From Helicobacter cetorum (GTDB taxonomy: Bacteria; Campylobacterota; Campylobacteria; Campylobacterales; UBA6016): a stretch of 64,000 bases of DNA. Made by a program: the position numbers and the translations under genes. This document shows positions 3,916 through 59,927 of this stretch, piece by piece (the first letter of the stretch is position 1; every line of letters begins with the position of its first letter). The notes under the pieces were generated by a model. It was given only the letters and a program-made list of their open reading frames with translations, did not search any database and had not been told where the DNA came from. Location: the NCBI GenBank assembly GCA_022729705.1, contig DZAX01000002.1, positions 53,277 through 117,276 on the forward strand, written 5' to 3'.

Positions 3916-4791
3916 CTAAATTTGCAAATACTCTCTTAGCCCATTTTCTAGCTCTTGCTGTAGGCTTACCGGAGAGATTATTTTTAGATTTGGTATCCAG
4001 TATCTCGCCACGGCACAGACATGGTCCGGCATAGAGGTCGTAGACGAGACTATCAAGGCTCCGCTTGGGAGCTCTTCGACTATTTGCTGATTTGGAACAA
4101 GGGCGCGCCTACGAAAATATTGGGCGATAGTCGGAGAAACCTCCATCGTAATACAGATAGTCTCGCCGTACCATATACCATCATCCGACTCTATTTGGCG
4201 TAATACGCTTGTGTCGTGTTCAAAATTTTTGTCCGTTACGGCTACGTTTTTCATTTTTGCGAGAGAAAAGCTTTTTAATTTTGATTCGTCTGTGGCGGAT
4301 AGATACCAAACGCCCTTATTGTTTACGAGCTTATAACCACAAACGCTCCGTTTTTTGTCCGAATATACGAACTCTACTATATTTTTGTCGGCTATCGCTT
4401 TTTGCAGTTTTGAAAATAGCTCTTTTTTGTCGTCTACGTTTTCGTAGTGGTGACCTCTTACGGAGATTACGGCGTTATTTACCACATCTTCTAGTATTCT
4501 CTTTAAAAACCCATTTTCAAGCGATGGAAACAGCCCCTTAACGCCTGATATTGCCGCAAAGTTTTGTATATCTGACATTGTTAGTTTGCCTAGATGATAG
4601 GGGTCTAGCGAGTAGCTGCCGTCGTCTTTTTTGAGCGGTAGATAGTCAAATCTAACGTTTAGGTCTCTTTGGATTGTTCTTTTGTTTACATTGAACTCTT
4701 TGGCTAACTCGTCTATGCGTAGTTTTTCCCCAGAGTTTAGCTTCAGAAGTATTTGCGATAGCCTTCTGGCAAGTTTGTCTTTTTCAGTCAT
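3916..4791 (-). CDS. HTH-WYL-WCX transcriptional regulator (YafY/BrxR/CapW-like architecture)
   Basis: N-terminal HTH (IDELAKEFNVNKRTIQRDL) and a central WYL-type segment (IVEFVYSDKKRSVCGYKLVNNKGVWYLSA...SFSLAKMKNV). The length of 291 aa is typical of the family. Confidence 0.8.
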   Translation of the reverse strand: MTEKDKLARRLSQILLKLNSGEKLRIDELAKEFNVNKRTIQRDLNVRFDYLPLKKDDGSYSLDPYHLGKLTMSDIQNFAAISGVKGLFPSLENGFLKRILEDVVNNAVISVRGHHYENVDDKKELFSKLQKAIADKNIVEFVYSDKKRSVCGYKLVNNKGVWYLSATDESKLKSFSLAKMKNVAVTDKNFEHDTSVLRQIESDDGIWYGETICITMEVSPTIAQYFRRRALVPNQQIVEELPSGALIVSSTTSMPDHVCAVARYWIPNLKIISPVSLQQELENGLREYLQI

Positions 4792-4813: not shown

Positions 4814-5302
4814 CTAGCCGTTAACTCTCAATATTCGGATTATACCCACACCCGCATTCTGCGCCGCCGGAGACGTGATGGCTTGCGGTGCTAGGCTATT
4901 TGCGGCGGCGGCGGTATGTGTTATCTTAAGAGCGTCGAGCGTATTCAGATCGTTAGAATCTATCTTAATAGCCCTACCGTCCAAACTACGCATAACCAGT
5001 CCACCCATAACGTCCGTATACGCCTCAACCCCCATCTGTAGTTTTGCGTCGTTTATCGCCCTTACCAGGCTCCCTTTTCTATCATAGTCTTCAAGCTCTA
5101 TAGCCCCTATAACTATATCGTTTATCGAAAAATCTATCGGGGTCGTACCGCCTTTCAGCGCTTCGTTTGGTTCGCTATATTTGTGCTCGACTACCCACGC
5201 CGCCCTTACTCCCGTTATATCGCTATAAGAGTTGATAAGGTTTGCCAACACCCCTATCCCCTCTCCGTTGTGATACCCCATTGGTACGGCGTGAAACTCC
5301 AT
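4814..5302 (-). CDS. hypothetical protein (probable C-terminal part of a frameshifted gene)
   Basis: 162-aa ORF immediately upstream of the WYL gene on the same strand. It overlaps the 87-aa ORF by 49 nt in another frame. No motif recognised. Confidence 0.45.
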   Translation of the reverse strand: MEFHAVPMGYHNGEGIGVLANLINSYSDITGVRAAWVVEHKYSEPNEALKGGTTPIDFSINDIVIGAIELEDYDRKGSLVRAINDAKLQMGVEAYTDVMGGLVMRSLDGRAIKIDSNDLNTLDALKITHTAAAANSLAPQAITSPAAQNAGVGIIRILRVNG

Positions 5303-5517
5303 AATTCATGCGTTCCGTCATAGTTTTTTAGGATAAGTCCCGCATCTCCAAACGGGTTTGCTTGGTCTATCGGAAGGAGTCTGCTCTGTTTGTAGCTTGT
5401 CGTTCCTAGTTTTGAGCCGTTAGATTGCCCGTCTTGCGCCGCTTGTATCGCTTGTATCGCTTGTATCGCTTTGGTCTTCATCGTATTTATGATTGTTACC
5501 TGCTCCTCTATAGCCAT
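5254..5517 (-). CDS. hypothetical protein (probable N-terminal part of a frameshifted gene)
   Basis: 87-aa ORF containing an (AIQ)3 repeat. Its reading frame runs into the downstream 162-aa ORF after a 1-nt shift near 5300. Confidence 0.4.
   Translation of the reverse strand: MAIEEQVTIINTMKTKAIQAIQAIQAAQDGQSNGSKLGTTSYKQSRLLPIDQANPFGDAGLILKNYDGTHELWSFTPYQWGITTERG
5442..5468. repeat. perfect 9-bp tandem repeat x3 (CTTGTATCG) encoding AIQAIQAIQ on the minus strand
   Basis: Read directly: cttgtatcg cttgtatcg cttgtatcg. Confidence 0.9.
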
Positions 5518-5767
5518 ATCCGCCGTTTGCAGTATCCCTTATAGCATCGTTTGCGTTTTTTATCGATTGATTTAGTGCGTTAGACGGGTTTTGAGGCTAT
5601 CCGCTATCGTTAGCCCTGATGAGTCGTCTGCCGAGGAGTTGATTAGAGTCTATTTACCGATTTATCTAGCTCTTGATTTGTTCTTAGGTTGTTTGTATAG
5701 GCGTTTTTTTGCCGTTATGTTTGTGTTTAGTTTGAAGCTCATAAGTCAGCCTTATCGTTTTAAAAAG

Positions 5768-5933: not shown

Positions 5934-6756
5934 ATGACTCTTAAAAAAATCAACGCTAGCGTTGGCGGCGGCTTTGTGTGCGGCTCTTGTGTTTTCTGGT
6001 TGCGCCTCATCTATGTAAACGGGCTCTACAAGGGCAAAGACCGAAGCGACCGGCTCCGCCGGAGGCTCTAACTCTCAAAACGCCAACTCAAAACTACAAA
6101 AATGCGAGCAGTCCATGGGAACTATCGCAATACAAGAAAATACAAATAGCGATTGGTACGGCGCTTTGATTAGAGAGTACAAGCTCACCTCTACGGTTCC
6201 GCTCTTAAAACTACTAGTGCAACAATCAAACTGCTTTGTCGTCGTAGAGAGAGGCAAGGGGCTAAGAAGTATAAATATGGAAAGAGAGCTTGCAAATAGC
6301 GGGGAGCTAAGAAGATCGTCAAATATCAGAAAAGGGCAAATGGTAGCCGCCGACTACACGATAGTTCCAAGTATAACCTTTAGCCAAAAAGGTACAAGCA
6401 AAAGCGGCGGAGTAGTGGGAGCCCTGCTAGGTCCCGTAGCCGGAGCCATAGCGGGCGGCATATCAAGCAGCGACGCTAGCGTACTACTAACCCTTGTAGA
6501 CAACAGATCAGGCGTTCAACTAGCCGCCGCCGAGGGAAGTGCTAGAAACTACGACTTAGCCCTTTTCGGCGGAGTAGGGCTAGCCGGACTAGGAGCGGGA
6601 GCGGGCGGATACTCAAATACGCCGGAGGGCAAGGTAATAGTAGCCGCTTTTACCGATTCGTTAAACAATTTGATAATATCTGTAAAAAATTATAAAACCC
6701 AAAACGTACGAGGCGGACTCGGTACAGGCGGGGGCTTGAGGGTGCAGGAGTATTGA
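5934..6756 (+). pseudogene. CsgG/HfaB-family lipoprotein gene, apparently disrupted (A7 frameshift plus in-frame TAA)
   Basis: ORF 6115-6756 has CsgG-like motifs (LLVQQSNCFVVVERGKGL..MERELA, then a Gly-rich segment and VLLTLVDNRSG). The same frame upstream encodes a lipobox signal KKSTLALAAALCAALVFSGC. That signal is cut by a TAA at 6016-6018, and the ATG at 5934 is one frame off across the A7 run at 5943-5949. Confidence 0.6.
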
Positions 6757-7027
6757 GGGGCGCATTATGTGTTTGATTAGTTTTTGTAGTATTTTTTAAT
6801 TAATATTTTACTTTTGATGTGGTATTGTAATTATACGGCAAGAGAAGTTTTTTAAGATTATTAAAATTTAAGGAAAGGGCGTTTTGAAGGAGCAACAAGC
6901 CGGATTTGCCGCCTCTCTTGAGCGTTTTGGGGATTTTATCGGCGGAGCTAAAGATTATAATGCCATCAGTTGCCTTGACGGATGGAGGCATTATAGTTGA
7001 ACATTAAATTATACAAAAGGAAATATT

Positions 7028-8152
7028 ATGAGTCAAGCACAGGATATGGAGCTATTTTCATCCGAAGAAAACGCCAAAAAAACTTTTGAAATTATCGAGG
7101 ACTTTGTTCAAAGCTATATTGAAAATAAAGAAAAAATGCCGCTAAAAGTGTGGTTAACGCAAAAGCTAACACAAAGCGGCGTTTGGGGCGACGAAGTTGA
7201 GAAAGTCGCAAATCTACTTATAGACCAAGCGCAAAAAAGAGCCGACATAAGAGAGGCTTACGACAAGCATATAAAAGAAGGCAAGAATGAAGAAACTTTT
7301 ATAGCAAGCTATGTAGAACAAAAGGCAAAAGAGCTTAACATATCAAACGAAGAAGCCGCAAAACAAATAGACGATTTGGCGGTTAGTTTTGATAAAAGAC
7401 TAGAAACGAAAAACGAAGATGGATGGAATGATTTTACGAGAATAGAAAATGCGGAATTAATCAGCGGCAAAGCCCATGCGATGGCGATGATTGGAATGAT
7501 AAGACAAGCAAAAGACGATGTAGTCAATAGAGTAAAAAATATGTTTAGCGGCAAAAAAAACCCAACTTTTCAAGAGTCGCTAGAAAAAATAATTATAAAT
7601 GCAAGTGCAACCGCAAGCGATAATGTCGGACTAAACGTGGCGATTGGCGCCGGCTTTATGACGGCGGCAAAAAGCGGATTTGTAAAATTTATGGATAGAC
7701 TAGCAGAGCACACAAGCGACATTTGGGGCGTGAAACACCTAACCGCCGCCGCAAGCGCGGTAACGCACGCCGGAGCGTTGGCTATAGATACCGCTAGAGC
7801 CGCGTATGATTTGGCGACAGGTAAAATGGATATAGAGCAAGCGATTAGTGCAATAAGAGCTAGCTCTACCACTCAAAACTTAGCCTCTTTGGGTGGCGGA
7901 GCCTTTGGAGCTATGGCTGGAACTATTTTGGGTCCGATTGGCGTTGTGGTAGGGGGCGCTATTGGTGCTTATATCGGCAAAAAAACGGCGGATTTACTAG
8001 AAGGCGGCATGGATAGGATTAAAAAAATAGTTGGCGAAGAAACCGTAGAAAGGGTTACAACCTTTGCCAAAGAAGCCATTAAGACCACTAAGAGTTTTAT
8101 TGGCGGCGTATTTAGCTGGGCAAAAAACAAAGTCTCTAAAGCTTTAGCGTAA
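7028..8152 (+). CDS. hypothetical helical protein with C-terminal glycine-zipper membrane segment
   Basis: 374-aa ORF. The C-terminal region reads LGGGAFGAMAGTILGPIGVVVGGAIGAYIGKK. It is the first gene of a co-directional 5-gene cluster. Confidence 0.7.
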   Translation: MSQAQDMELFSSEENAKKTFEIIEDFVQSYIENKEKMPLKVWLTQKLTQSGVWGDEVEKVANLLIDQAQKRADIREAYDKHIKEGKNEETFIASYVEQKAKELNISNEEAAKQIDDLAVSFDKRLETKNEDGWNDFTRIENAELISGKAHAMAMIGMIRQAKDDVVNRVKNMFSGKKNPTFQESLEKIIINASATASDNVGLNVAIGAGFMTAAKSGFVKFMDRLAEHTSDIWGVKHLTAAASAVTHAGALAIDTARAAYDLATGKMDIEQAISAIRASSTTQNLASLGGGAFGAMAGTILGPIGVVVGGAIGAYIGKKTADLLEGGMDRIKKIVGEETVERVTTFAKEAIKTTKSFIGGVFSWAKNKVSKALA

Positions 8153-8273
8153 GCAACCAACTTTTTGCTTTACTTTACATATTAATGGCGGGGGAAAATC
8201 CCGCCCATCTCAAGCTACAAAAAGCTTTACTTTTTGAGAATTTTATTAGATAGAAGGAAAAAAGGAATAATAA

Positions 8274-11186
8274 ATGGCGGTAATTAAATTTAAGTTGACA
8301 ATAGGCGGTAAAGCTATAGATACGCTAGACGAGCTTCGCGAGTGTTGTAAAAACACAGCAAACAAATCTAGCATAATGGCAATATTTAAAGACGAGAGAC
8401 TACAAAAGTGGCTTGAAGTGCGAGATCATGATGAGTTGTCTGCGCGTATTAAAAAACTCCACGGCGACGACAATAAAATATACGACTATATTAAAGAGTT
8501 TATTGGCGAGGCTAAAACGTACGACGGCGCAAAAAAAATCTTTAAAATATCGTACAATCCGTATGTGCTGGATAAAACTACGATATTTTTAAACGGCGAG
8601 CAATGCGATATTAGCATAGGGAGGTTGCAACACAACCTAGACCAAGTGATAAAAGACTTAGAGAGTGCTTGTAAGCAAAAAGAATACACAATAGAATTTA
8701 CCGGAAGAGAGATAGATTTTGACGACCTAGAATTAGCGTGCGAACACGCAAATAAAGACGAGGGTTATAAAATTACGCTAGAGCACAAGCCCTCTTTTGA
8801 AGCGTCCGGCGTTTTGAGTAATATTAAGCGTCTTGAATCGACTCTTAAAGATTTGCCAATTCCCGACGAAGAAAAAACATATGCGCAAGAAGCACTACAA
8901 AAGGCACTTCATAGCGAGTTTGAAATAGCTGTAGTAGCCACTATGAGTTCTGGCAAATCTACGCTTATAAACGCCATGCTGCAAGTTGAACTTTTGCCTG
9001 CGCGCAACGAAGCGACTACGGCAAAAATATTTAGAATAAAAGATGTTGACGGAAGAGATAGGTTTCGCGTAAAGTCTAACGGACAATGGATTGATTGCAC
9101 GCAAGAGACGCTAGAGGGCTTAAACGGCGGCGACTCCGACGGCTTTATCGAGATAGAGGGAGATATTCCGGCTATTAAATCCGATATTATGAGCCTAGTA
9201 TTGCTTGACACGCCCGGACCAAATAATTCGCGAAATGAACAACACAAAGAAAAAACCTATAGTATTATTAAGGACAATCAAAAACGCCCAGTTATACTTT
9301 ATGTGCTAAACGCGCAACAAATTGGTATTAACGACGACTCTTTTTTGATTAACAGTATAGCCGCGCAAATGCAAGACGGCGACAAGCAAAACAAAGAGCG
9401 TTTTTTGTTTGTTTTGAATAAAGCGGACGCTTTTGATACCGAAAAAGGCGAAAAGATACAAGACGCCATGGATAAATGCAAGGCGTATTTGGAAGAGAAA
9501 GGCATAAAAGAGCCTCTTATTTTTCCAATAAGCGCAGAGTTGGCTAGGGTTATTAGAAAACAAAAAAAAGGCGATAAGCTTACATCGAATGAAAGAAAAG
9601 CGCTATTTGATTGCGATAGATTTAACGAAGACGCCACATTGCATTTAGAAAAGTATGCCCCACTGGATAAAGCAAGCAAAAAGAAAGTTCAAAATACCCT
9701 TGAAAACGTAAGTGATGATGAAGAAAAAGCGCTAATTCATACCGGAATAGTTACCTTGGAAATAGCTATTAACGATTATGTTTCCAAATACGCCTCCGCT
9801 GTTAAAATTGGCGAGGCTTTGTCGGCTATTCAAAACATATCCACAAAACAAGAAGGTTTTGCGAAAATGATTGAAGAAGCCAAAGCCGCCGCCGCCGAAG
9901 CCAAACTAAAAGGCGATGAGGCTGAAGCCGCGATAGAGGAGGCTAAAAAAAAAGTTAAAGAAATAGAAGAGGAGATAGCTAAGAATGAAGCTGAAAAACA
10001 AGCACTAGAAGACAACAAAGACAGCACAAGCAAAGAAGTTCAAGAGAAGCGAGAGCTAATCGAGCGTAGAAAAAAAGAATTAGCCGCAATGGAAAAAGAG
10101 CGTTTGCAAAAACAGGATGAGCTTCGCAAAAACGAAAGCGTCATAAATGAAAAAGAGCAAAAGATAAAAGCTCTTCAAGAAAAGTTTCGCAAATTAAAAG
10201 AAGCCCTAAAATATATTAGTCTTAAAGATTTGAGCGAATTTAAAGAAATGGATGCAAAAGTGCGCTCTTGGGCAATCAACAAGACGGAAAAATTTATAGA
10301 TGCCAAACTACCAAAACACGAAGTTATGACGCTGCTCGGCGTATTGCAAAAGGATATTTCCAATTTTATTGTAGATATTAAGACCGATTTGCGAAAAGTG
10401 TATGCCGACAAGATTGATAGTAGAATAAAATCTATAGTAGCGATGATTGAGATTGAAATTAAAAGCTCCCTAGACGGCGGAATGCGAGATATAGCCTGCG
10501 CCAATTTAAAAGACATAGCGTCTAAACATGTATTTCAACAAGACGTGGTAGTGGGTAAAAAAACTGTAAAAATAGAAAGATCGATGTGGAATCCATTTCA
10601 CTGGCCTGGTATGATGTTTGGCAATGACGAAGAAGTGGTTGACGATGTTCAAAGACAATCGTTTATAAATATGCGTTCCGTTGAGCCTAAACTTTCCGAA
10701 CTAACGAAAACTTTGATAGACACTATTGAAAAAACAAAAAATGAGCTTGCAATGCAACTAGATAAAGTACAAGAAGGTATTCTTGATGAGTTAGAGACCA
10801 TTCAAAAAACAATGGAAGATGCAGAAAACGAGCGAGACCGAATATATATGGCAATGGTCGCTATGGAAGATCAAGCAAGGGGGCTTGACTTTAAAGAGAA
10901 AAAAACCAAGGATGAATCTTCCACGGAAGAAGAAGAGCTAAATAAAAAGCTTGCCGAGTCTGATAAGCTAGAAAAAAGCTTGGACGAAAAACAGGACAAG
11001 ATAAAAGAGTTTGACAACGCCGTAAACCAAAAGACCCAAGAGATTGAAAACGCCAAAAACAGAGCTGAACAAGAGGCTCGAAACTCTGAAATCGCACAAA
11101 AAGTTGTTGACGAATATGCCCAAAAAGAAAAAGCGTTTGCGCGTTTGCGTATTGAACTTGAAAAATGTTATGGAGAATTAAAATGA
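8274..11186 (+). CDS. dynamin-like large GTPase with long C-terminal coiled coil
   Basis: G1 VVATMSSGKSTLINAM, G3 LLDTPGPN, G4 VLNKAD. It has about 210 aa of unknown N-terminal region and about 450 aa of E/K-rich heptad-like sequence. Confidence 0.85.
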   Translation: MAVIKFKLTIGGKAIDTLDELRECCKNTANKSSIMAIFKDERLQKWLEVRDHDELSARIKKLHGDDNKIYDYIKEFIGEAKTYDGAKKIFKISYNPYVLDKTTIFLNGEQCDISIGRLQHNLDQVIKDLESACKQKEYTIEFTGREIDFDDLELACEHANKDEGYKITLEHKPSFEASGVLSNIKRLESTLKDLPIPDEEKTYAQEALQKALHSEFEIAVVATMSSGKSTLINAMLQVELLPARNEATTAKIFRIKDVDGRDRFRVKSNGQWIDCTQETLEGLNGGDSDGFIEIEGDIPAIKSDIMSLVLLDTPGPNNSRNEQHKEKTYSIIKDNQKRPVILYVLNAQQIGINDDSFLINSIAAQMQDGDKQNKERFLFVLNKADAFDTEKGEKIQDAMDKCKAYLEEKGIKEPLIFPISAELARVIRKQKKGDKLTSNERKALFDCDRFNEDATLHLEKYAPLDKASKKKVQNTLENVSDDEEKALIHTGIVTLEIAINDYVSKYASAVKIGEALSAIQNISTKQEGFAKMIEEAKAAAAEAKLKGDEAEAAIEEAKKKVKEIEEEIAKNEAEKQALEDNKDSTSKEVQEKRELIERRKKELAAMEKERLQKQDELRKNESVINEKEQKIKALQEKFRKLKEALKYISLKDLSEFKEMDAKVRSWAINKTEKFIDAKLPKHEVMTLLGVLQKDISNFIVDIKTDLRKVYADKIDSRIKSIVAMIEIEIKSSLDGGMRDIACANLKDIASKHVFQQDVVVGKKTVKIERSMWNPFHWPGMMFGNDEEVVDDVQRQSFINMRSVEPKLSELTKTLIDTIEKTKNELAMQLDKVQEGILDELETIQKTMEDAENERDRIYMAMVAMEDQARGLDFKEKKTKDESSTEEEELNKKLAESDKLEKSLDEKQDKIKEFDNAVNQKTQEIENAKNRAEQEARNSEIAQKVVDEYAQKEKAFARLRIELEKCYGELK

Positions 11187-11647
11187 ACAATACTGGATTA
11201 GAAAAAGCAATAGGGACGGGCGATATTGGAGAGGTTAGATTAGGGTTTGTTAACTGTTTTATGGTTAGTAGCGATTGGGCAAAAAAATGCCTTGAATTTT
11301 ATCGCAATCAAATATCGCAAGACTTGTGGCAAGCGCACAATGGCAAAACATTTAAAAATAAAAGCGGTTGGAATAAGGAGTATTTCGTTGCTTTACAAAT
11401 GGAGTTACAAGATAATTTTTCCGAAGAGCGCTTTGCTCATACAATAGAAGTCGGTCAATATGTAATGAGGCAAAAGCAAGCGCCTGCGATTGATAAGCCA
11501 AAGCCAAACGCTCCAAACGCAAACGCCGCAAAACAAAAAAGTCAAGAAGCAAAGCAAGAGTCGCAACAAGCCAACTCTTCTCGTATTGTAGCTACGGTGG
11601 TAGTTGTTGGCGTTATTGTCGCTATCGCCGCAATCGCATTTTTGTGA
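11183..11647 (+). CDS. tail-anchored membrane protein (hypothetical)
   Basis: The start overlaps the GTPase stop (ATGA). It has a soluble N-domain, a Q/K/A/N-rich linker and a C-terminal TM helix IVATVVVVGVIVAIAAIAFL. Confidence 0.6.
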   Translation: MNNTGLEKAIGTGDIGEVRLGFVNCFMVSSDWAKKCLEFYRNQISQDLWQAHNGKTFKNKSGWNKEYFVALQMELQDNFSEERFAHTIEVGQYVMRQKQAPAIDKPKPNAPNANAAKQKSQEAKQESQQANSSRIVATVVVVGVIVAIAAIAFL

Positions 11648-11723
11648 CAAACAAAAAGAGATTTGATTGGCGTGCGCCGCTTGCGGATTAGCGTAGTCAA
11701 AAAATTTACTAGGATGGGAAAAA

Positions 11724-13235
11724 ATGGGAAGCTTAGTTGAAGAGATAAAAGAATATATAGATACATATCATCCGGTGATATATATTGAAAGCTTAGACGA
11801 GATAGAAGCCGATAGCGTTGTTAAAGAGCTTGCCGAAAAGTGCAATAAAAGAACCGTGTTTGAGTATTCGCATAAATATATGTTTGAATACAAGAATGGG
11901 ATCAAAATAAGATTACAAAAAGAAGTTGATGTGTCTAAGTTTTTAGACAATAGGCTTACAAGCGACACAAAAAAGCAATTTATTGTTTTAAAAGATATAC
12001 ACAAATATTTAATCGGCGATACGTCGGCGGAAAGCGCTAATTTGATTTTGAGCTTAAAAAATCTAGTGTATAAGATTGTTGAAGATGACGGCAAAAGTGA
12101 AAATACTATTTTTATAATATCGCCAATACTAGCCATACCGCCAGAAATTGCAAAATTTATTACTGTTTTTAAGCCAAAGTCGCCGGATGAACAAGTGATT
12201 GCTAGCGTTATTGACGCCTTTTGCAAAACCCAAGAAATACAAATACAACAAAGCGTCAAGCAAGAAATTATTAACAGACTAAAAGGTCTTAGCGGATACG
12301 AGATAAATAAGATATTGGCGCTTGCTCTTTATAGAGACGGACGCATTAATCAAGAAGATTTTGACTTAATATCAAAACAAAAAAGCCAAATGGTTATGAA
12401 AAATGGCGTGTTGGAGATGATAGAAGTCAAGGCAAAACCTGATTCTTTGGCGGGTCTTCAAAATCTAAAATATTGGATAGGGAAAAAAAGCAAAATTTTT
12501 GAAAGATTGGCGGAAGCGAAAACAAAAAAAATAGACCCGCCAAAAGGCGTTATGCTTGTTGGTTTGCCAGGGTGCGGCAAATCTCTTAGCGCCGAGGTTA
12601 TAGCCGCTATTATGAAAACTCCACTACTGCGCCTAGATATGGGCAAATTGCTTGGCAAATATGTCGGGGAGAGCGAAGAGAATATGAGGCGAGCCATACA
12701 TTTAGCCGAAGCCGTTAGCCCTTGCGTGCTTTGGATAGATGAAATAGAAAAAGCGTTTGTGGGCGTAAGCGGAGATAGCGGCGGTTCTGATGTTAGCAAA
12801 AGAATGTTTGGGAGCTTTTTGACTTGGATGCAAGAAAAAACATCTCCCGTATTTGTCGTAGCTACAGCAAACGACATAACAAGCTTGCCGCCGGAACTAC
12901 TTAGAAAAGGTAGATTTGATGAGCTATTTTCTGTTGCTTTGCCAAACAAAGACGAACGAGAGGGAATTTTTGCCGTCCATCTTAAAAAGCGTGACGCCGA
13001 TAGCGGTATTGATAAAAAAAGATTGGCTGAACTTTCAGAAGGATTTATTGGCGCCGAAATAGAATCTGTAGTAAAAGATGCTTTAGAAGAGGCATTTATT
13101 GACCAAAAGCAGTTTAATACGGCTTTACTAGAACGTATAACTAAAGAGTTAAAACCTATGTCTAAATCGCAAAAAGCCAAGATAGATTCCTATAATCAAA
13201 AGATTAAAGAGCTTGATATTAAATCGGCTTCGTGA
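11724..13235 (+). CDS. classical-clade AAA+ ATPase with degenerate N-terminal AAA-like domain
   Basis: Walker A GLPGCGKS, Walker B CVLWIDEIE, second region of homology ATANDITSLPPELLRKGRFD. The N-terminal 250 aa or so lack a P-loop. Confidence 0.85.
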   Translation: MGSLVEEIKEYIDTYHPVIYIESLDEIEADSVVKELAEKCNKRTVFEYSHKYMFEYKNGIKIRLQKEVDVSKFLDNRLTSDTKKQFIVLKDIHKYLIGDTSAESANLILSLKNLVYKIVEDDGKSENTIFIISPILAIPPEIAKFITVFKPKSPDEQVIASVIDAFCKTQEIQIQQSVKQEIINRLKGLSGYEINKILALALYRDGRINQEDFDLISKQKSQMVMKNGVLEMIEVKAKPDSLAGLQNLKYWIGKKSKIFERLAEAKTKKIDPPKGVMLVGLPGCGKSLSAEVIAAIMKTPLLRLDMGKLLGKYVGESEENMRRAIHLAEAVSPCVLWIDEIEKAFVGVSGDSGGSDVSKRMFGSFLTWMQEKTSPVFVVATANDITSLPPELLRKGRFDELFSVALPNKDEREGIFAVHLKKRDADSGIDKKRLAELSEGFIGAEIESVVKDALEEAFIDQKQFNTALLERITKELKPMSKSQKAKIDSYNQKIKELDIKSAS

Positions 13236-13273
13236 AAACACTTATTATATTATTTTGAAATAAGGTATTTAGA

Positions 13274-13543
13274 ATGTTTTGTTTTAAGTGTGGGAAAAAG
13301 CTTTTAGATGGGGAGTCGTACTGTCAAAACTGCGGAGCAAAAGCGCAAGACTATGATGTTTTAAAACAAGTCCAGAAATATCCATTGTTTAAAATCATAA
13401 CAACAATAACTATAGCCTTAGTTATCTTGTTTGCTATCTATGGCATAATTATCAGTTTGCCTTGGATACTTCTTGTATTGGGCATATCGATTGGAGTGGC
13501 GATTGCGATGTCGATCATGAAAAATCGGAAGAAACAATATTGA
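13274..13543 (+). CDS. zinc-ribbon membrane protein
   Basis: N-terminal CFKCGKK...CQNCG, followed by two hydrophobic helices. It is the last gene of the cluster. Confidence 0.6.
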   Translation: MFCFKCGKKLLDGESYCQNCGAKAQDYDVLKQVQKYPLFKIITTITIALVILFAIYGIIISLPWILLVLGISIGVAIAMSIMKNRKKQY

Positions 13544-54207: not shown

Positions 54208-56037
54208 ATGTTAAACGACGAATCATTTGATATACGAAAAGCAAAAATAGAAGAGTTAAAGAGACTATTTCCAGAGGTCGTTACGGAGGGTGGTATAGAC
54301 TTTGAAGCCCTCAAAGCGACTTTGGACGGTGACATCGACGCCGCAAAAGAGAAATACCGCTTTACATGGAACGGCAAATCGGAGCTTTTTTCTCTCATAA
54401 ACCGTAAAACAAAAGGTGCGTTAAAGCCAGATGTCAAAAAAAGCGGTGGTGAACAGGCTTTTGAGTCGGCTGAAAATATCATCATAGAAGCCGATAACCT
54501 TGAAGCCATGAAGCTACTGATGAGCGCATATCACCGTAAAGTGAAGATGATATACATAGATCCGCCCTACAACAAGCAAAAAGACTTCGTATATCCCGAT
54601 AACTGGTCTGACCCGCTGGAGAGCTATCTGATGCAAACAGGGCAAAAGGATGAATTTGGGCTAACGGCTAGCTATCAGGACAAGACGGGGCGATTGCATA
54701 CCAACTGGCTAAACATGATATATCCTAGACTCTATCTAGCTAGAAATCTACTAAGAGACGACGGCGTGATATTTGTCTCTATCGACGACGATGAGGTACA
54801 CAACCTGCGAAAAGTGATGGATGAGATATTTGGGGAGGAGAATTTTGTAGCCAATGTTATTTGGCACAAAAACTATGCTTCCGCAAACGATGCAAAAGGG
54901 TTTTCAAATGTGCATGACTATGTCATGGTCTATCAGAAAAGCTCATCATTTAATAGAAATTTACTACCAAGAACTGAAAAACAAAACTCACTATACAAGT
55001 ACGATTCTAATGACGGAAAGGGGCTGTGGCGTTCTGATAATCTAACAGTTAAAACATATTCCAAAGAATATGACTATCCAATAATAAATCCAAACACTGG
55101 GAAAAGCTATAATCCAACCAAAGGACGATGCTGGATTACTAATAAAAATACAATGCAGGAATGGATTGATACAGGAAGGGTTTTTTTTGGTCAGGATGGC
55201 AATGGCGCACCGCAATTAAAGCGTTATATTAACGAGGTACAGCAGGGTATTATCCCAATTACATACTGGTCATATGATGATTGTGGGCACAACGATGAGG
55301 CAAGAAAAGAAATTAAAGAACTGTTTGAGCACCCTCCGTTTGACACCCCAAAACCCGTTAAGCTTATCCGTCGAATGCTTGAAATTGGTACAAAGACAGA
55401 CGAGGACAACATCGTCTTAGACTTCTTCGCAGGTAGCGGCACAACTGCACACGCCGTAATGGCTCAAAACATTGAAGACGGTGGAAATAGAAAATATATC
55501 CTCGTCCAAATCCCAGAATACACGCCAGAAAATAGCGAAGCTAGAAAAGCTGGATATGAGACTATAGCCGACATCACCGCAGAGCGAGTGCGACGGGTGG
55601 CAAAAAAGTTAAATTACAAAAACGGCTTTCGCTACTTCCGTCTTGATAGAAGCCATTTTAGAGTTTTTGAGCAGATGATACACGAAAAAGGCAAGTCAAA
55701 AGAAGAAGTGCTAAAACTCCTACGCATGAGTATGTTTCATGACAATACTCTAATGGCAAACTGGACTCCGATAGGCGTAGCCTTTGAGATAGGACTCAAA
55801 AACGGTATGTCGCTGACAAGTAAATACAAGGTAGAGAAAAATGGCAAATACAATCTGCACTATCTGACAAGCGAGACAAGAACTTTTGTGTTTTGCTTTG
55901 ATGAGCAAATCAGCGAAGAGATAGCAAAACTACTACCGCAAAACGCAAAATTCGTCTGCCCGGACAAGTCGCTAACGGATAGCGTAAAGCTCAATATCGT
56001 AGCCCAAATCGGGCTGGAAAATGTAGAGACGATATAA
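54208..56037 (+). CDS. mod: type III restriction-modification DNA methyltransferase (Mod)
   Basis: Motif IV IYIDPPYN and motif I FFAGSGTTAHAV (beta-class order), with a central variable TRD-like region. Confidence 0.9.
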   Translation: MLNDESFDIRKAKIEELKRLFPEVVTEGGIDFEALKATLDGDIDAAKEKYRFTWNGKSELFSLINRKTKGALKPDVKKSGGEQAFESAENIIIEADNLEAMKLLMSAYHRKVKMIYIDPPYNKQKDFVYPDNWSDPLESYLMQTGQKDEFGLTASYQDKTGRLHTNWLNMIYPRLYLARNLLRDDGVIFVSIDDDEVHNLRKVMDEIFGEENFVANVIWHKNYASANDAKGFSNVHDYVMVYQKSSSFNRNLLPRTEKQNSLYKYDSNDGKGLWRSDNLTVKTYSKEYDYPIINPNTGKSYNPTKGRCWITNKNTMQEWIDTGRVFFGQDGNGAPQLKRYINEVQQGIIPITYWSYDDCGHNDEARKEIKELFEHPPFDTPKPVKLIRRMLEIGTKTDEDNIVLDFFAGSGTTAHAVMAQNIEDGGNRKYILVQIPEYTPENSEARKAGYETIADITAERVRRVAKKLNYKNGFRYFRLDRSHFRVFEQMIHEKGKSKEEVLKLLRMSMFHDNTLMANWTPIGVAFEIGLKNGMSLTSKYKVEKNGKYNLHYLTSETRTFVFCFDEQISEEIAKLLPQNAKFVCPDKSLTDSVKLNIVAQIGLENVETI

Positions 56038-56044
56038 GGAAAAT

Positions 56045-56611
56045 ATGATGAAAGCTCAGCATTTATTGGAAAAAGATATAGTTAAATCACTCATGCAAGT
56101 GCCAAAGTTTTATATGAACAAGGCAAAACCAAGAGATTTATCTTTTGGTGACATACAGGGAATGCTTAATAAGAAATCAAATAATGCCAATTATGACGCT
56201 ACTGAATTTGTTGTACATGATGGTAGTGGTGAGGAATATATTATTATTGTGCAGGTTGGCACCGATGATGATTTGGATGATTTTAGCACTAGTTTATTTT
56301 TAAAAAGAGATAAAGAGCGGGTTTTTATATGTAGACTTGACTATCATGCTAAACATTTAAGAAAGTGCCGAAGAAACAGTTTTGACGATACGCATGCTGA
56401 CAAATTTCATTTTCATATTCATTGCAAAGAGTGTTACGAAGCAATGGGTGAAAAAGGTATTTGGAATGTTGCTTTTAGTATCAAAAACAAAGAGGATATT
56501 AACCTTGCAAACTTCTTGCATTTTTTCTTTAACAAAATAAATTTAAAAACTAAACAGTATTTTCTTAAAGAGCAAACATTATTGGAGATAACAGATGAAA
56601 TCTCAAATTGA
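56045..56611 (+). CDS. hypothetical His/Cys-rich protein inserted between mod and res
   Basis: 188-aa ORF with HAKHLRKCRRNSFDDTHADKFHFHIHCKECY (possible metal site). It is AT-rich (about 28-30% GC by hand count, versus about 40-43% in mod and res). Confidence 0.6.
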   Translation: MMKAQHLLEKDIVKSLMQVPKFYMNKAKPRDLSFGDIQGMLNKKSNNANYDATEFVVHDGSGEEYIIIVQVGTDDDLDDFSTSLFLKRDKERVFICRLDYHAKHLRKCRRNSFDDTHADKFHFHIHCKECYEAMGEKGIWNVAFSIKNKEDINLANFLHFFFNKINLKTKQYFLKEQTLLEITDEISN

Positions 56612-57380
56612 AGAACTTTTGAAAAAGTTATGTAAAAACTTTACAATAGAAGAAACTAGAAACAAGTTTAAATATAAAATTACCACCCCATTTACACTTC
56701 CATGTGGTGAGCAAATAAGCTTTATAGCACAAATTATAAGCGATAAAGAAATTTTACTTGATGATAAAGCATTTATTTTTAGATATTTTGATCTTAATTT
56801 TTTTGAGCCAAAAAATAGTGCTATAGAGTCAATGGATGAAATTTGTAAAAACTTTGGAATTGCTAGTGGTGACAGTTTTCAGAAAATTATTACTATTGAT
56901 GATCGTTTTTGTGAGTACGATTTTTATGATTACATAAACGCACTTATACGACTATCGGATATTATTTTTTATAAACCAGAACAAAGAGAAAAAAATGATT
57001 TTATTGAGCAGTTGATTAATTATGTTAGGGATGGTTTTGATGTTAAAACAAAATTCTTTTCCTCTGGCGTTAAGCCTTATGATAGTAAGGATGATTTTAA
57101 GGTAGATATAGCTTTATCAACTGATGATAAAAAATGGGTTCTGATAAACGGTATATATAACCAAAATAGAATGTCAGAAATAAATCTTTCTTTGATGTAT
57201 TACAAATTTGAGCATAAATTAGAAATCGAAAGCATTTTGGTTTTTGATAACATGGATGCTTATGTGAAAAAGGGCGGCAAACTAAATAGGCTTTTAAAGT
57301 ATATAGATACTCCTGTTGCCACGTTTGATGATGATGGAAAAGCTAAAATTAAAGAAACATTAGAAAAAAGATTATATTAG
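56595..57380 (+). CDS. hypothetical protein (possibly DUF1828/DUF1829-like) inserted between mod and res
   Basis: 261-aa ORF that overlaps the previous gene by 17 nt and ends 1 nt before the res ATG. The N-terminus YKITTPFTLPCGEQISF...LLDD resembles DUF1828 from memory only. Confidence 0.6.
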   Translation: MKSQIEELLKKLCKNFTIEETRNKFKYKITTPFTLPCGEQISFIAQIISDKEILLDDKAFIFRYFDLNFFEPKNSAIESMDEICKNFGIASGDSFQKIITIDDRFCEYDFYDYINALIRLSDIIFYKPEQREKNDFIEQLINYVRDGFDVKTKFFSSGVKPYDSKDDFKVDIALSTDDKKWVLINGIYNQNRMSEINLSLMYYKFEHKLEIESILVFDNMDAYVKKGGKLNRLLKYIDTPVATFDDDGKAKIKETLEKRLY

Positions 57381-59927
57381 ATGACCCTCCGCTACTCCTC
57401 AAACCTCCCACACCAACAAAACGCCATAAACGCCGTTTTGTCGCTATTTGACGCTCAAATAGCACAAGAGGATAGTTTTGCCATCTTTGACGATGAGGCT
57501 GTTGTTGATAATAGGCTTACGATAGACGAAGAGCAGATACTATCAAATCTGCAAGCGGTGCAGAGCGCAAACAAGCTGCCGCCGAGCGAGAAGCTAGAGA
57601 GCCTTGATTTTAGCCTCGAAATGGAGACGGGGACTGGTAAGACATACGTGTATTTGCGCACGGCTTTGGAGCTTTATATCAGATACGGATGGAAAAAATT
57701 TGTCGTCGTAGTTCCGTCAATAGCTATCAAAGAAGGGGCTCTTTCAAGCTTAGAGGGGATGAGCGCTCACTTTTTGCAGGAGCTAAAAATACGCTACAAC
57801 TACTTTGAGTATAGCTCCGAGCGATTAACGGAACTACGGCACTTCATAAGAGATGACGAGCTTCAAATCATGGTAACGACTCTTGACGGCTTCAAGCGGC
57901 AAAATACAGTAATGCAGAGAGACGATTTGGAAAACTTCTCAGGCTCCCCGCTAGAGTCTCTTGCGCGCACTAGACCTATCGTGATACTGGATGAGCCGCA
58001 AAATATGGAGTCTGACTTGTCAAAGGAGGCTTTGGGGGCTTTAAATCCGCTTTTTGTCCTTAGATATTCGGCGACGCACAAAAATCTATACAACCTCATA
58101 TATAGCCTATCGCCAAAAGAGGCGTTAGAAGCCGGGCTAGTCAAAAAAGTATTCGTAGTGGGTATATCAGAGCAAAAAGTAGCTAGTGAAGCATACATAA
58201 GCGTAGCGGCAATAGAGCGTGACAAAAACAAAAAACTCTTTGCGTCGCTGGAGCTAATCGCAAATCAAAAAAACAGCTTTGTCAAAAAATTGTTTAATGT
58301 CAAAGTAGGCGACACTCTTGCGGACAGGGCAAAAAATAGCGTTTATGATGGTTTTGCGGTTAGCGAGATTAGCTATGCCGATGGATATATATCTTTTGAA
58401 AACGGCGTAAAATTAGTGCTTCATGAGACTAGTGGGCAGGTAAAAAAAGAGATACAAAAAGAGCAGATAAGAGAAGCGATAAAAAAACATTTTGAGACTA
58501 CGAAGGCGTTAAAGCCAAAAGGGATAAAGCCGCTTTGTCTTTTTTTTGTCGATAGGGTGGCAAACTTTTTGGCTGTTGAAGATGGTTGGATGGAAGCCTT
58601 TTTTTGCGAAGCGTTTGACGAGATGAAAGATAGTTTTGCGGAGTTTGCAAATATGGAGGCAAAAAGCGCTTATAAATACTATTTTGCAAAGCGTTCAAAA
58701 GGGTATGTGGACGAGCTAAAGAATAACGACGCCGATAGGAAGGCGGGGAAAGAGGCGTATGATCTGATACTAAAAGGCAAAGAACAGCTGATGAAACCAG
58801 ATGAACCTGTAAGCTTTATATTTAGTCATTCGGCGCTCAAAGAGGGGTGGGACAACCCAAACGTCTTTACCATAGCCACGCTCAACGAGACCAATAGCGA
58901 TTTAAAAAGAAGGCAAATAATCGGGCGCGGGCTCAGGCTATGTGTGGATGCAGAGGGGAAGAGGGTATATGATATAAATATCAATAGACTTAGCGTCGTG
59001 GCAAATGAGAGTTTTCAAAGTTTTACGGAGAGCCTGCAAAAAGAGTATGCACAGACGGGACAAACGGGCGGCGATGTCGGCGACGGTGGTCTTAAAAAGC
59101 AGAAAGCGACGCTAAAAAAAGATATTCTACTATCGGACGAATTTAAAAAACTATGGTCGTTGATAAGTCGAAAAACTGAGTATCATGTAAAACTGGAAAC
59201 CGAAAAATTTGTTACAGACGTTATCGAAAAGCTAAATGAGATTGAGGTTTGCAGACTTAAAATCAGAATAGAAGAAGGTGGTGTGGGCGAGGGAGTTGAT
59301 GAGGAGAGACAAAAGGTTATAAACATAATACCGCGCATTTCAGATATAGTAGGCGAGTTAACCACAAATACCGGACTTACGAGGGCTACTATAATTTCTA
59401 TTTTGGATAAAATAGATTTGGAGAGATTTGTTGATGATTTAGACAGTTTTGCAAAAAAGGCTAGCCTTATCATCAACGATGAGAAAGCCATGTGTCTAGC
59501 AAGCGGAATATCATATAAACAGCTTGATGAATGGTGGTTGCAAGAAAATATCTTTGATGATGAATTTGAAGATTTTGAGTTGGTTGAGATGAAAAAGAGT
59601 TTATATGACTATATCAAATGCGACTCAAGCACTGAGAAACTATTTGCAAAGTGTGCCGACAATAGATTTGGGCTTACTATTAAACTACCAAAACGATTTT
59701 ATATCCATACGCCGCTTGGCAAATATAGTCCGGATTGGGCGATAGTCGCAAACGATAAATCAAAAACGTGTTTTGTAGTAGAGACAAAAGCCGCTGAGCT
59801 AGATAGTGAATTAAGGGGTGTTGAGGGCGCCAAAATAAAATGCGGAAAGAAGCATTTTGGAGTGCTTGACGTTTTATATAGGCAAAATAAAAAATGCGAA
59901 GATATACTAACAGAGCCCTCACGCTGA
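57381..59927 (+). CDS. res: type III restriction endonuclease (Res) helicase-nuclease subunit
   Basis: Helicase motif I METGTGKTYVY, motif II ILDEPQNM, and a C-terminal PD-(D/E)xK-like SPDWAI...VVETKA. Confidence 0.9.
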   Translation: MTLRYSSNLPHQQNAINAVLSLFDAQIAQEDSFAIFDDEAVVDNRLTIDEEQILSNLQAVQSANKLPPSEKLESLDFSLEMETGTGKTYVYLRTALELYIRYGWKKFVVVVPSIAIKEGALSSLEGMSAHFLQELKIRYNYFEYSSERLTELRHFIRDDELQIMVTTLDGFKRQNTVMQRDDLENFSGSPLESLARTRPIVILDEPQNMESDLSKEALGALNPLFVLRYSATHKNLYNLIYSLSPKEALEAGLVKKVFVVGISEQKVASEAYISVAAIERDKNKKLFASLELIANQKNSFVKKLFNVKVGDTLADRAKNSVYDGFAVSEISYADGYISFENGVKLVLHETSGQVKKEIQKEQIREAIKKHFETTKALKPKGIKPLCLFFVDRVANFLAVEDGWMEAFFCEAFDEMKDSFAEFANMEAKSAYKYYFAKRSKGYVDELKNNDADRKAGKEAYDLILKGKEQLMKPDEPVSFIFSHSALKEGWDNPNVFTIATLNETNSDLKRRQIIGRGLRLCVDAEGKRVYDININRLSVVANESFQSFTESLQKEYAQTGQTGGDVGDGGLKKQKATLKKDILLSDEFKKLWSLISRKTEYHVKLETEKFVTDVIEKLNEIEVCRLKIRIEEGGVGEGVDEERQKVINIIPRISDIVGELTTNTGLTRATIISILDKIDLERFVDDLDSFAKKASLIINDEKAMCLASGISYKQLDEWWLQENIFDDEFEDFELVEMKKSLYDYIKCDSSTEKLFAKCADNRFGLTIKLPKRFYIHTPLGKYSPDWAIVANDKSKTCFVVETKAAELDSELRGVEGAKIKCGKKHFGVLDVLYRQNKKCEDILTEPSR

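Follow-up and report, generated by a model that had tools for sequence, protein, structure and literature searches.

A dynamin and AAA ATPase operon of Helicobacter cetorum that probably joins parts of two recurrent bacterial gene systems

Introduction

To our knowledge, the roles and partners of bacterial dynamins are largely unknown, and the function of the Ycf46 family of AAA ATPases has never been established. Among the described bacterial dynamins, Bacillus subtilis DynA contributes to phage defense by membrane binding (excerpt of PMC12998192), and LeoA of enterotoxigenic Escherichia coli (ETEC) enhances toxin release, potentially via vesicles (excerpt of PMC4159319). Here, we analyze an operon of Helicobacter cetorum that contains both a dynamin-like GTPase gene and a Ycf46-like AAA ATPase gene. 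It lies in a stretch of 64,000 nucleotides (GenBank assembly GCA_022729705.1, contig DZAX01000002.1, positions 53,277 to 117,276 of the forward strand), which we refer to as the window and from whose first nucleotide its coordinates are counted. The operon had previously been singled out, without database searches, as a five-gene module (g1 to g5) acting on membranes in conflict or repair, and we refer to that account as the original prediction.

Our analysis suggests that the functional unit is probably g1-g2-g3-g4, that this unit is a chimera of two recurrent gene systems and probably under the control of a WYL-domain regulator, and that g5 is a passenger. The two parents are referred to as system A, in which a dynamin is accompanied by a HerA/FtsK-type ATPase and polymorphic toxins, and system B, in which a Ycf46-like AAA ATPase is accompanied by a glycine-zipper protein and by proteins that share a small N-terminal docking domain. 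Such a chimera explains the parts of the operon: the dynamin and g3 would come from system A, and g1, the docking domain of g2 and the AAA ATPase (g4) would come from system B.

A conserved four-gene order

The operon consists of five co-directional open reading frames (ORFs) on the plus strand, g1 (7028..8152, 374 amino acids [aa]), g2 (8274..11186, 970 aa), g3 (11183..11647, 154 aa), g4 (11724..13235, 503 aa) and g5 (13274..13543, 89 aa). The intergenic spacing from g1 to g5 is 121, -4, 76 and 38 bp, the negative value being an ATGA sequence in which the start codon of g3 overlaps the stop codon of g2. These ORF coordinates reproduce the predicted layout and gaps, and every quoted motif was found in the g1 to g5 translations. 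Other contigs of the window lineage carry the same operon, and the named relatives of its housekeeping genes place the host in Campylobacterales known from metagenome-assembled genomes.

Outside this lineage, the order g1-g2-g3-g4 recurs on a 7.7-kb metagenome contig (L007), which encodes proteins of 379, 840, 137 and 502 aa with 51%, 45%, 40% and 54% identity to those of the window, respectively. Since L007 keeps the same order and also retains the docking domain of g2, the fusion of this domain to a dynamin appears to be an inherited and selected arrangement. The unit of five genes that had been proposed thus stands for g1 to g4 but not for g5, which is absent from L007 and from every other related locus and is present only in close relatives of the window genome. 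The g5 product matches Pfam Zn_Ribbon_1 (6.5e-7) and has two transmembrane (TM) segments; its membership in the module is doubtful, and from this distribution we regard it as a putative passenger.

The dynamin and its relatives in system A

The g2 protein matches Pfam Dynamin_N (PF00350) over residues 218-384 (2e-13, 51 bits vs a curated cut-off of 27), and its G1 to G4 residues are invariant in 55 homologs (G227, K228, S229 and T230; T249; D312, T313, P314 and G315; N382, K383 and D385). Sequence searches of the PDB with g2 returned almost no match. An AlphaFold2 (AF2) model of g2 has a predicted local distance difference test score (pLDDT) of 71 overall and 80-97 in the N-domain and GTPase domain, with a low-confidence stalk, and Foldseek matched it to mitofusin 1/2, SynDLP, Cj-DLP1/2, BDLP and IniA (E = 1e-9 to 1e-7, probability 1.0). 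The Dynamin_N score and the mitofusin/BDLP-like fold thus bear out the predicted dynamin-like GTPase and place g2 in the BDLP/mitofusin class of the dynamin superfamily.

Three regions make up the g2 protein. Residues 1-90 (8274..8543, plus strand) form the N-terminal docking domain, which is found in neither Pfam nor NCBIfam. Residues 92-500 (8547..9773, plus strand) comprise a family-specific N-domain (92-210) and the dynamin GTPase domain (215-500), and residues 501-970 (9774..11186, plus strand) comprise, from the alignment and the AF2 model, a helical stalk with two coiled-coil insertions and a beta-hairpin. What had been read as about 210 aa of N-terminal sequence of unknown nature is therefore two parts, a docking domain common to non-dynamin proteins and an N-domain typical of the family. 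Similarly, the alignment retains only part of the predicted coiled coil of about 450 aa: two insertions (~530-655 and the C-terminal ~60-85 residues) are coiled coil and specific to the window protein and its lineage, while the remainder is a normal dynamin stalk. The beta-hairpin (753-799) carries a hydrophobic tip, MWNPFHWPGMMF, bearing a W-NPF-W motif conserved in the family (AF2 model and alignment), and is presumed to be a membrane paddle.

A genome scan with the single g2 protein gave no match. When an alignment was used instead, with each species represented by one genome, at least 268 relatives of g2 came to light, in Firmicutes, Spirochaetes, Proteobacteria, Bacteroidota, Cloacimonadota, Fusobacteria and others. 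Outside its own lineage, the closest relative of g2 is 45% identical. We called and clustered ORFs in the loci of 80 of these relatives (L012-L091), which reveals a recurrent gene set across many phyla. The set begins with a WYL regulator (32/80 loci, mostly directly upstream) and a small dynamin of 300-500 aa, followed by a large dynamin of ~750 aa that is homologous to g2 residues 92-970. Next come a tail-anchored g3 homolog (73 loci), a DUF87 protein that is a HerA/FtsK-type ATPase of ~1080 aa (73 loci), a polymorphic nuclease/deamidase toxin of ~200 aa and a SUKH/SMI1-type immunity protein of ~135 aa. By clustering, 61 of the 80 loci contain all three of the dynamin, g3 and DUF87 genes. 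Halonatronum (L013, 8776-18528), Psychrobacter (L051) and Pseudomonas (L052) provide examples. In these canonical dynamins, similarity to g2 (31-40% identity) starts only at about residue 92 of g2, and the docking domain is absent from them.

The ~200-aa proteins of system A share an N-terminal leader, "MIE...ELDKP", and mostly overlap the stop codon of the ATPase gene, while their C-terminal domains differ (WHH/colicin-DNase, LHH or Gln-amidase). The common leader, the differing toxin C termini and the SUKH/SMI1 immunity gene after each of them are together the signature of polymorphic toxins. System A is unnamed in PADLOC, NCBIfam and Pfam, and full-text literature searches returned no publication in which dynamins are connected with DUF87, HerA or polymorphic toxins. 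Neither the window nor L007 contains a small dynamin, a DUF87 ATPase or a leader-bearing toxin or immunity gene.

The g3 protein consists of a soluble core with the pattern W..Y...L..NFS.ER..H...V, a linker and a C-terminal TM segment at 135-153. Homologs of g3 lie directly 3' of the dynamin gene in 73 loci, and 68 of 79 have a C-terminal hydrophobic segment. Pfam gave no signal for it other than weak glycine-zipper matches, and its profile found no match in the PDB. From gene context and architecture, g3 is a predicted tail-anchored partner of the g2 dynamin family.

Two loci in Cloacimonadota (L057, 9609-15161, and L038) show a third partner set: the dynamin and g3 genes are followed by genes for a 249-aa protein, an HDOD protein and a GGDEF cyclase, with no HerA ATPase or toxin there. 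This arrangement recalls a dynamin homolog of E. coli that is reportedly linked to cyclic di-GMP synthesis (excerpt of PMC13463826).

The triad of system B

The docking domain recurs in proteins encoded beside g1-like and AAA genes, which reveals the second parent. The system B triad consists of a g1-family protein (370-530 aa, with the glycine zipper at the C terminus), a Ycf46-like AAA ATPase and at least one docking-domain protein, with one or two such genes per locus. The domain is N-terminal and ~65-90 aa long, with the consensus M+xIKFxLxLNGxxIxTLxxLxxNL...G+LxxWLxxR, and the module that follows it is Lcl_C/DUF1566, LRV, Sel1 (once with HPr) or an unknown helical region. A dynamin occupies this position only in the window and L007. 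Examples of system B include Crenothrix (L097), Paraburkholderia (L095) and the metagenomic loci L008-L011 and L092.

In all 14 examined loci with an AAA score of 692 bits or more, a docking-domain gene (E = 1e-12 to 1e-33) and a g1-family gene (E = 1e-52 to 1e-116) are both present; these reduce to ~8 distinct loci, as some are near-identical to each other or are relatives of the window. In contrast, 65 viral AAA loci scoring at most 460 bits have neither. One further locus (L102, 629 bits) ends at a contig edge and was counted neither way. The window holds all three components in one locus, a g1-family gene, a docking-domain gene and a Ycf46-like AAA gene with at least 43% identity. It matches the hidden Markov models (HMMs) of system B at 1e-111 for g1, 2e-26 for the docking domain and 731 bits for the AAA ATPase, although window sequences are part of the training alignments and the independent support is pairwise BLAST to other loci. 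The dynamin and g3 genes together within a triad were found only in the window lineage and L007.

Toxin-antitoxin (TA) pairs (VapBC, BrnTA, ParE-like and DUF4160/DUF2442) lie between triad genes, often just upstream of the AAA gene (L008, 3502-4151; L009, 7225-7982; L011, 5162-7976; L097, 5326-8965), and may be either hitchhikers or working components. Serine recombinase, Cas1 and phage-like genes occur near triads, and three triads are located on IMG/VR contigs. The IMG/VR contigs examined (L102-L178) hold more than 200 Ycf46-like AAA genes, which, except for the three most similar, have no g1-family or docking-domain neighbors, suggesting that phages carry a separate branch of the Ycf46-like AAA family. 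System B is unnamed in PADLOC, NCBIfam and Pfam, and literature searches, including searches for Ycf46, returned no description of it.

A faint N-terminal motif match in the PDB raised the possibility that the docking domain is barstar-like, but at E = 0.25-0.5 and 20% by hhalign over 19 columns, we rejected it as evidence. A separate observation concerns a Selenomonadaceae metagenome-assembled genome (L049, 18060-20237), in which a docking-domain protein with Sel1 repeats and HPr is encoded directly downstream of a canonical dynamin/HerA/toxin system, on a contig that stops short of any AAA gene.

Taken together, these comparisons suggest that, in the window, a large dynamin from system A has taken the place of the variable module of system B and would have brought its g3 anchor along. 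The composition is a rare hybrid of two recurrent systems, and no description of it was found in the literature searched.

The AAA ATPase and the glycine-zipper protein

The g4 protein comprises an N-domain (residues 1-205) and an AAA domain with its lid (270-460). It matches Pfam AAA (PF00004) at 3e-31 (109 bits), with a sub-threshold match to AAA_lid_3, and its best PDB matches are the D2 domains of VAT, Cdc48 and p97 (1e-53). Homologs are 43-47% identical over 100% of the length, and UniRef gives one of these proteins the name ycf46. The catalytic and pore-loop residues are invariant in 20 homologs (GLPGCGKS, DE339-340, the K312-Y-V-G315 pore loop, sensor-1 N383 and the arginine fingers R394/R397). 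As had been predicted, g4 is a classical AAA ATPase, and it is Cdc48-D2-like and of the Ycf46 family. The description of g4 as a tandem AAA protein holds less well: the N-domain does lack a P-loop, but its relationship to AAA domains is weaker than had been stated. It is collinear with the AAA domain through Walker-B-, sensor-1- and lid-like segments and looks like a degenerate, P-loop-less AAA domain, with weak statistics (hhalign probability of 24%).

The g1 protein is predicted to be all-helical, with a glycine zipper at the C terminus (residues ~286-320), and a hydropathy scan finds one clear hydrophobic segment (294-312), which lies inside the zipper. Its only Pfam signals are weak, to glycine-zipper and C19orf12-like families. 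These features, together with the C-terminal TM segment of g3 and the Zn ribbon and TM segments of g5, agree with the membrane character that had been proposed for all three proteins. The g1 family is rare: only four close clusters of g1 relatives were identified among 5.8e9 proteins, and an exhaustive search gave 79 representative clusters at E < 1e-3; a metagenome scan with the g1 alignment found only a near-identical contig, its search patterns being too degenerate. The ratio of nonsynonymous to synonymous substitution rates (dN/dS) between g1 and its counterpart in L094 is 0.24, and g1 is therefore under purifying selection.

Most DUF87 ATPases of system A also carry a glycine zipper, at residues ~280-340 and thus at nearly the same position (~290) as that of g1, and the PADLOC LeoBC model matches this segment of the ATPases (2e-7). 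We considered homology between g1 and the N-terminal half of DUF87 and rejected it in favor of analogy, since only the glycine zipper aligns (hhalign 36%; HMM E = 1e-3 to 1e-6).

The regulator, the flanks and other features

The HTH-WYL regulator predicted in the flank is present on the minus strand at 3916-4791 (Pfam WYL, WCX and HTH_11), on the opposite strand to the operon and 2.2 kb away. Its product is 32-35% identical over the full length (E = 1e-48 to 1e-56) to WYL proteins of Pasteurellaceae and Psychrobacter whose genes immediately precede canonical dynamin systems, compared with ~22% identity to those of the remaining canonical loci. The former similarity suggests that the gene is not merely island context, as had been assumed, and is probably a retained component of the system and the regulator of the module, although inverted and displaced.

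Between the regulator gene and the operon lie fragments of other genes. Those at 4817-5538 (minus strand) correspond to Flagellin_IN and part of Flagellin_N and are probably a further pseudogene. They are followed by a CsgG/HfaB lipoprotein pseudogene (5934-6756, plus strand) that is 99% identical to intact relatives of 273 aa. It differs from these by one additional A, in an A7 run after codon 5, and by a CAA-to-TAA change at 6016-6018, in agreement with the broken CsgG-like gene that had been noted; the extra A could be an assembly error or mark a phase-variable tract. Two other predicted neighbors were not recovered, as a Pfam scan of 13.6-15.4 kb detected neither an IS481 nor an AbiEii toxin remnant. 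The proposed 38-aa leader ORF (6884-7000) also lacks support: six of seven substitutions relative to a 97%-identical relative are nonsynonymous, the region has no Rfam match, and its RNA folding is no better than that of shuffled sequence.

The 121-bp gap between g1 and g2 contains a GC-rich hairpin, GGCGGG-GGAAAATC-CCGCCC (8187-8206, plus strand), with no T-run after it, which may serve in RNA processing or stability or as an attenuator. A promoter and terminator scan of the locus found no more sites than in shuffled sequence. A megablast search of the region against plasmids gave no match. Elsewhere in the window, a type III restriction-modification pair (methyltransferase and Res-like endonuclease) is encoded at 54208-59927 on the plus strand.

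Proposed function and alternatives

The architectures of the parent systems, the domain boundaries and the conserved fusion suggest that the products of g1 to g4 cooperate at the inner membrane. We lean slightly toward an overall role in conflict, that is, in defense against phages or competitors. This is favored by the WYL control, the toxin and immunity genes of system A, the TA pairs, recombinases and viral contigs around system B, the sporadic distribution and the pseudogene neighbors, and it leaves the conflict role of the original prediction plausible.

A possible mechanism, which we regard as doubtful when taken as a whole, would run as follows. The g3 anchor and the hydrophobic beta-hairpin would hold the dynamin on the inner membrane, and the docking domain would couple it to the AAA hexamer and to g1. 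Upon a trigger, GTP-driven assembly of the dynamin and ATP-driven unfolding or extraction via the KYVG pore loop would change the state of g1, whose glycine zipper would then insert into the membrane or be released from it. The outcome would be either membrane permeabilization, as in abortive defense, or resealing.

Several points weigh against this interpretation of the locus. No PADLOC model names g1 to g4 as a defense system, and the g2 dynamin family was not found on phage (tblastn) or IMG/VR records. The locus is flanked by housekeeping genes (lepB, folD and hyp genes), and the triad sample is small, at ~8 distinct loci. The AF2 model of g1, built from five sequences, has a pLDDT of 37, so a pore or effector role is suggested by the glycine zipper only, and the docking domain has no detectable similarity to g1, g3 or the N-domain of g4. 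In addition, the Sel1, LRV and Lcl_C modules look like binders, and the dynamin in their place may either sense membrane damage or act as an effector.

Other explanations account for part of the same evidence. The arrangement of system B, a conserved N terminus followed by a variable C terminus, is also that of secreted polymorphic effectors, and Lcl_C domains are typically extracellular. The operon might accordingly encode an export or surface-display machine in which the AAA ATPase is the motor, g1 the conduit and the docking domain an export signal on interchangeable cargo, with the dynamin aiding membrane passage or vesicle release. Such a machine would suit the company of the dynamin in system A (leader-bearing toxins, immunity genes and a HerA/FtsK ATPase that resembles coupling proteins), the toxin release that ETEC LeoA enhances, potentially via vesicles (excerpt of PMC4159319), and the presence of a CsgG/HfaB outer-membrane channel gene next to g1 in the window lineage. 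We nevertheless consider it unlikely: the variable modules are binders of the Sel1, LRV and HPr type rather than toxins and lack immunity genes beside them, a dynamin of 970 aa would be an improbable cargo, the CsgG gene is a pseudogene in the window and absent from L007, and g1 has only one clear hydrophobic segment. Housekeeping membrane maintenance, with a dynamin that repairs or fuses membrane like B. subtilis DynA, an AAA ATPase that extracts damaged or tail-anchored proteins and no role in conflict, is also improbable. It is compatible with a chromosomal position between a sensor kinase gene and lepB/folD and with the BDLP/mitofusin-like fold of g2. The extraction of tail-anchored proteins is an established activity of classical AAA proteins such as Msp1, and g3 is of this substrate type. 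Yet the distribution is very sporadic (four close g1 clusters in 5.8e9 proteins, and 45% identity to the nearest g2 relative), the parent systems are tied to toxins, TA pairs, recombinases and viral contigs, and the pseudogene neighbors resemble those of variable islands.

The remaining two alternatives concern the extent and integrity of the unit. A self-contained defense operon of all five genes and the leader peptide, in which the AAA ATPase disassembles dynamin polymers, would fit the tight co-directional spacing and the absence of a matching named system, but we judge it quite unlikely given that g5 is absent from L007 and all related loci and that the leader ORF lacks coding constraint. 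Moreover, the AAA and g1 genes occur together without a dynamin in most related loci, which indicates that the AAA ATPase is not a dedicated dynamin disassemblase. Finally, the CsgG and flagellin pseudogene fragments nearby, the missing canonical partners and the displaced and inverted WYL gene could point to a decaying, nonfunctional remnant, that is, what is left of a canonical dynamin system after the loss of its small dynamin, HerA ATPase and toxin, placed by chance beside an unrelated AAA cassette. This is highly improbable, since the ORFs of g1 to g4 are all intact, as are the catalytic residues of g2 and g4, the docking domain is in frame with the dynamin in a fusion conserved in L007, and the dN/dS of g1 is 0.24. 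We thus retain the chimeric four-gene unit as the preferred explanation.

It is possible, with chances somewhat below even, that the window exposes two undescribed and widespread modular systems, an AAA plug-in system and a dynamin/HerA toxin system, with exchangeable dynamin modules; that the two parents are themselves new kinds of system has a substantial chance. The locus provides two partner sets for one dynamin family, polymorphic toxins and a HerA/FtsK ATPase across many phyla and a Cdc48-like AAA ATPase with a glycine-zipper protein in the window, and it defines a small docking domain through which a Ycf46-type AAA ATPase appears to gain diverse partner proteins. If the two systems are indeed of this modular kind, system B would be a Cdc48-like motor and a glycine-zipper protein served by interchangeable docking-domain plug-ins, dynamin among them, that resemble the UBX-type cofactors of p97. 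System A would be a WYL-controlled dynamin pair with a HerA/FtsK ATPase that handles polymorphic nuclease toxins, and would represent a new dynamin-dependent route by which toxins are released or delivered. As an experiment of nature, the window operon would show that bacterial machines for immunity or antagonism can exchange their dynamin modules. The function of Ycf46 would become testable, cofactor-directed p97 would have a prokaryotic analog, and bacterial immunity or antagonism would have a dynamin branch.

Comparison with known systems

The prediction that the gene set matches no named system was upheld by PADLOC, NCBIfam, Pfam and the literature. The Eleos system and ETEC LeoABC resemble the window in having dynamin-like GTPases that lie in accessory loci and presumably act on membranes. 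However, Eleos has two dynamin genes and no AAA, g1 or g3 gene, whereas the window and L007 have a single dynamin gene. A PADLOC scan of g2 down to E = 0.1 found no match to the LeoA or LeoBC model, both of which are present in the library. With no Leo model match for g2 and one dynamin gene only, we rejected the identification of the window operon with Eleos.

B. subtilis DynA, Nostoc BDLP, C. jejuni DLP1/DLP2 and the mitofusins share the fold class of g2 by Foldseek, at 14-19% identity. Compared with these dynamins, g2 has one head, an extra N-domain, the docking domain, a beta-hairpin paddle and other partners. An assignment to DynA itself was rejected because g2 scores 26.9 bits against NCBIfam NF052648, for which the cut-off is 1600, and has one GTPase domain instead of a fused double one; an assignment to CrfC was likewise rejected, the NCBIfam score being far below the cut-off.

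For g4, the nearest described relatives are Cdc48, p97 and VAT, whose D2 domain it matches (1e-53) with pore loop and arginine fingers intact. It differs from Cdc48 in having a single active ring and a degenerate N-domain, and no Cdc48 N-domain or cofactors were detected. The IetA models of IetAS in PADLOC match g4 at 5e-30, over the AAA domain only. The identification of g4 as IetA was rejected, as the NCBIfam IteA model (NF042959) gives 102 bits against a cut-off of 510 and the operon contains no IetS protease gene.

The closest counterparts of the operon are therefore its two putative parents. With system A, the window shares the large dynamin (g2 residues 92-970), the g3-type partner and the WYL regulator, to which it adds the docking domain, g1 and the Ycf46-like AAA ATPase. 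With system B, it shares homologs of g1, of g4 and of the first 90 residues of g2. Elsewhere in system B, the variable part is Lcl_C, Sel1, LRV or an unknown module and TA pairs are often interspersed, whereas in the window the variable part is a dynamin.

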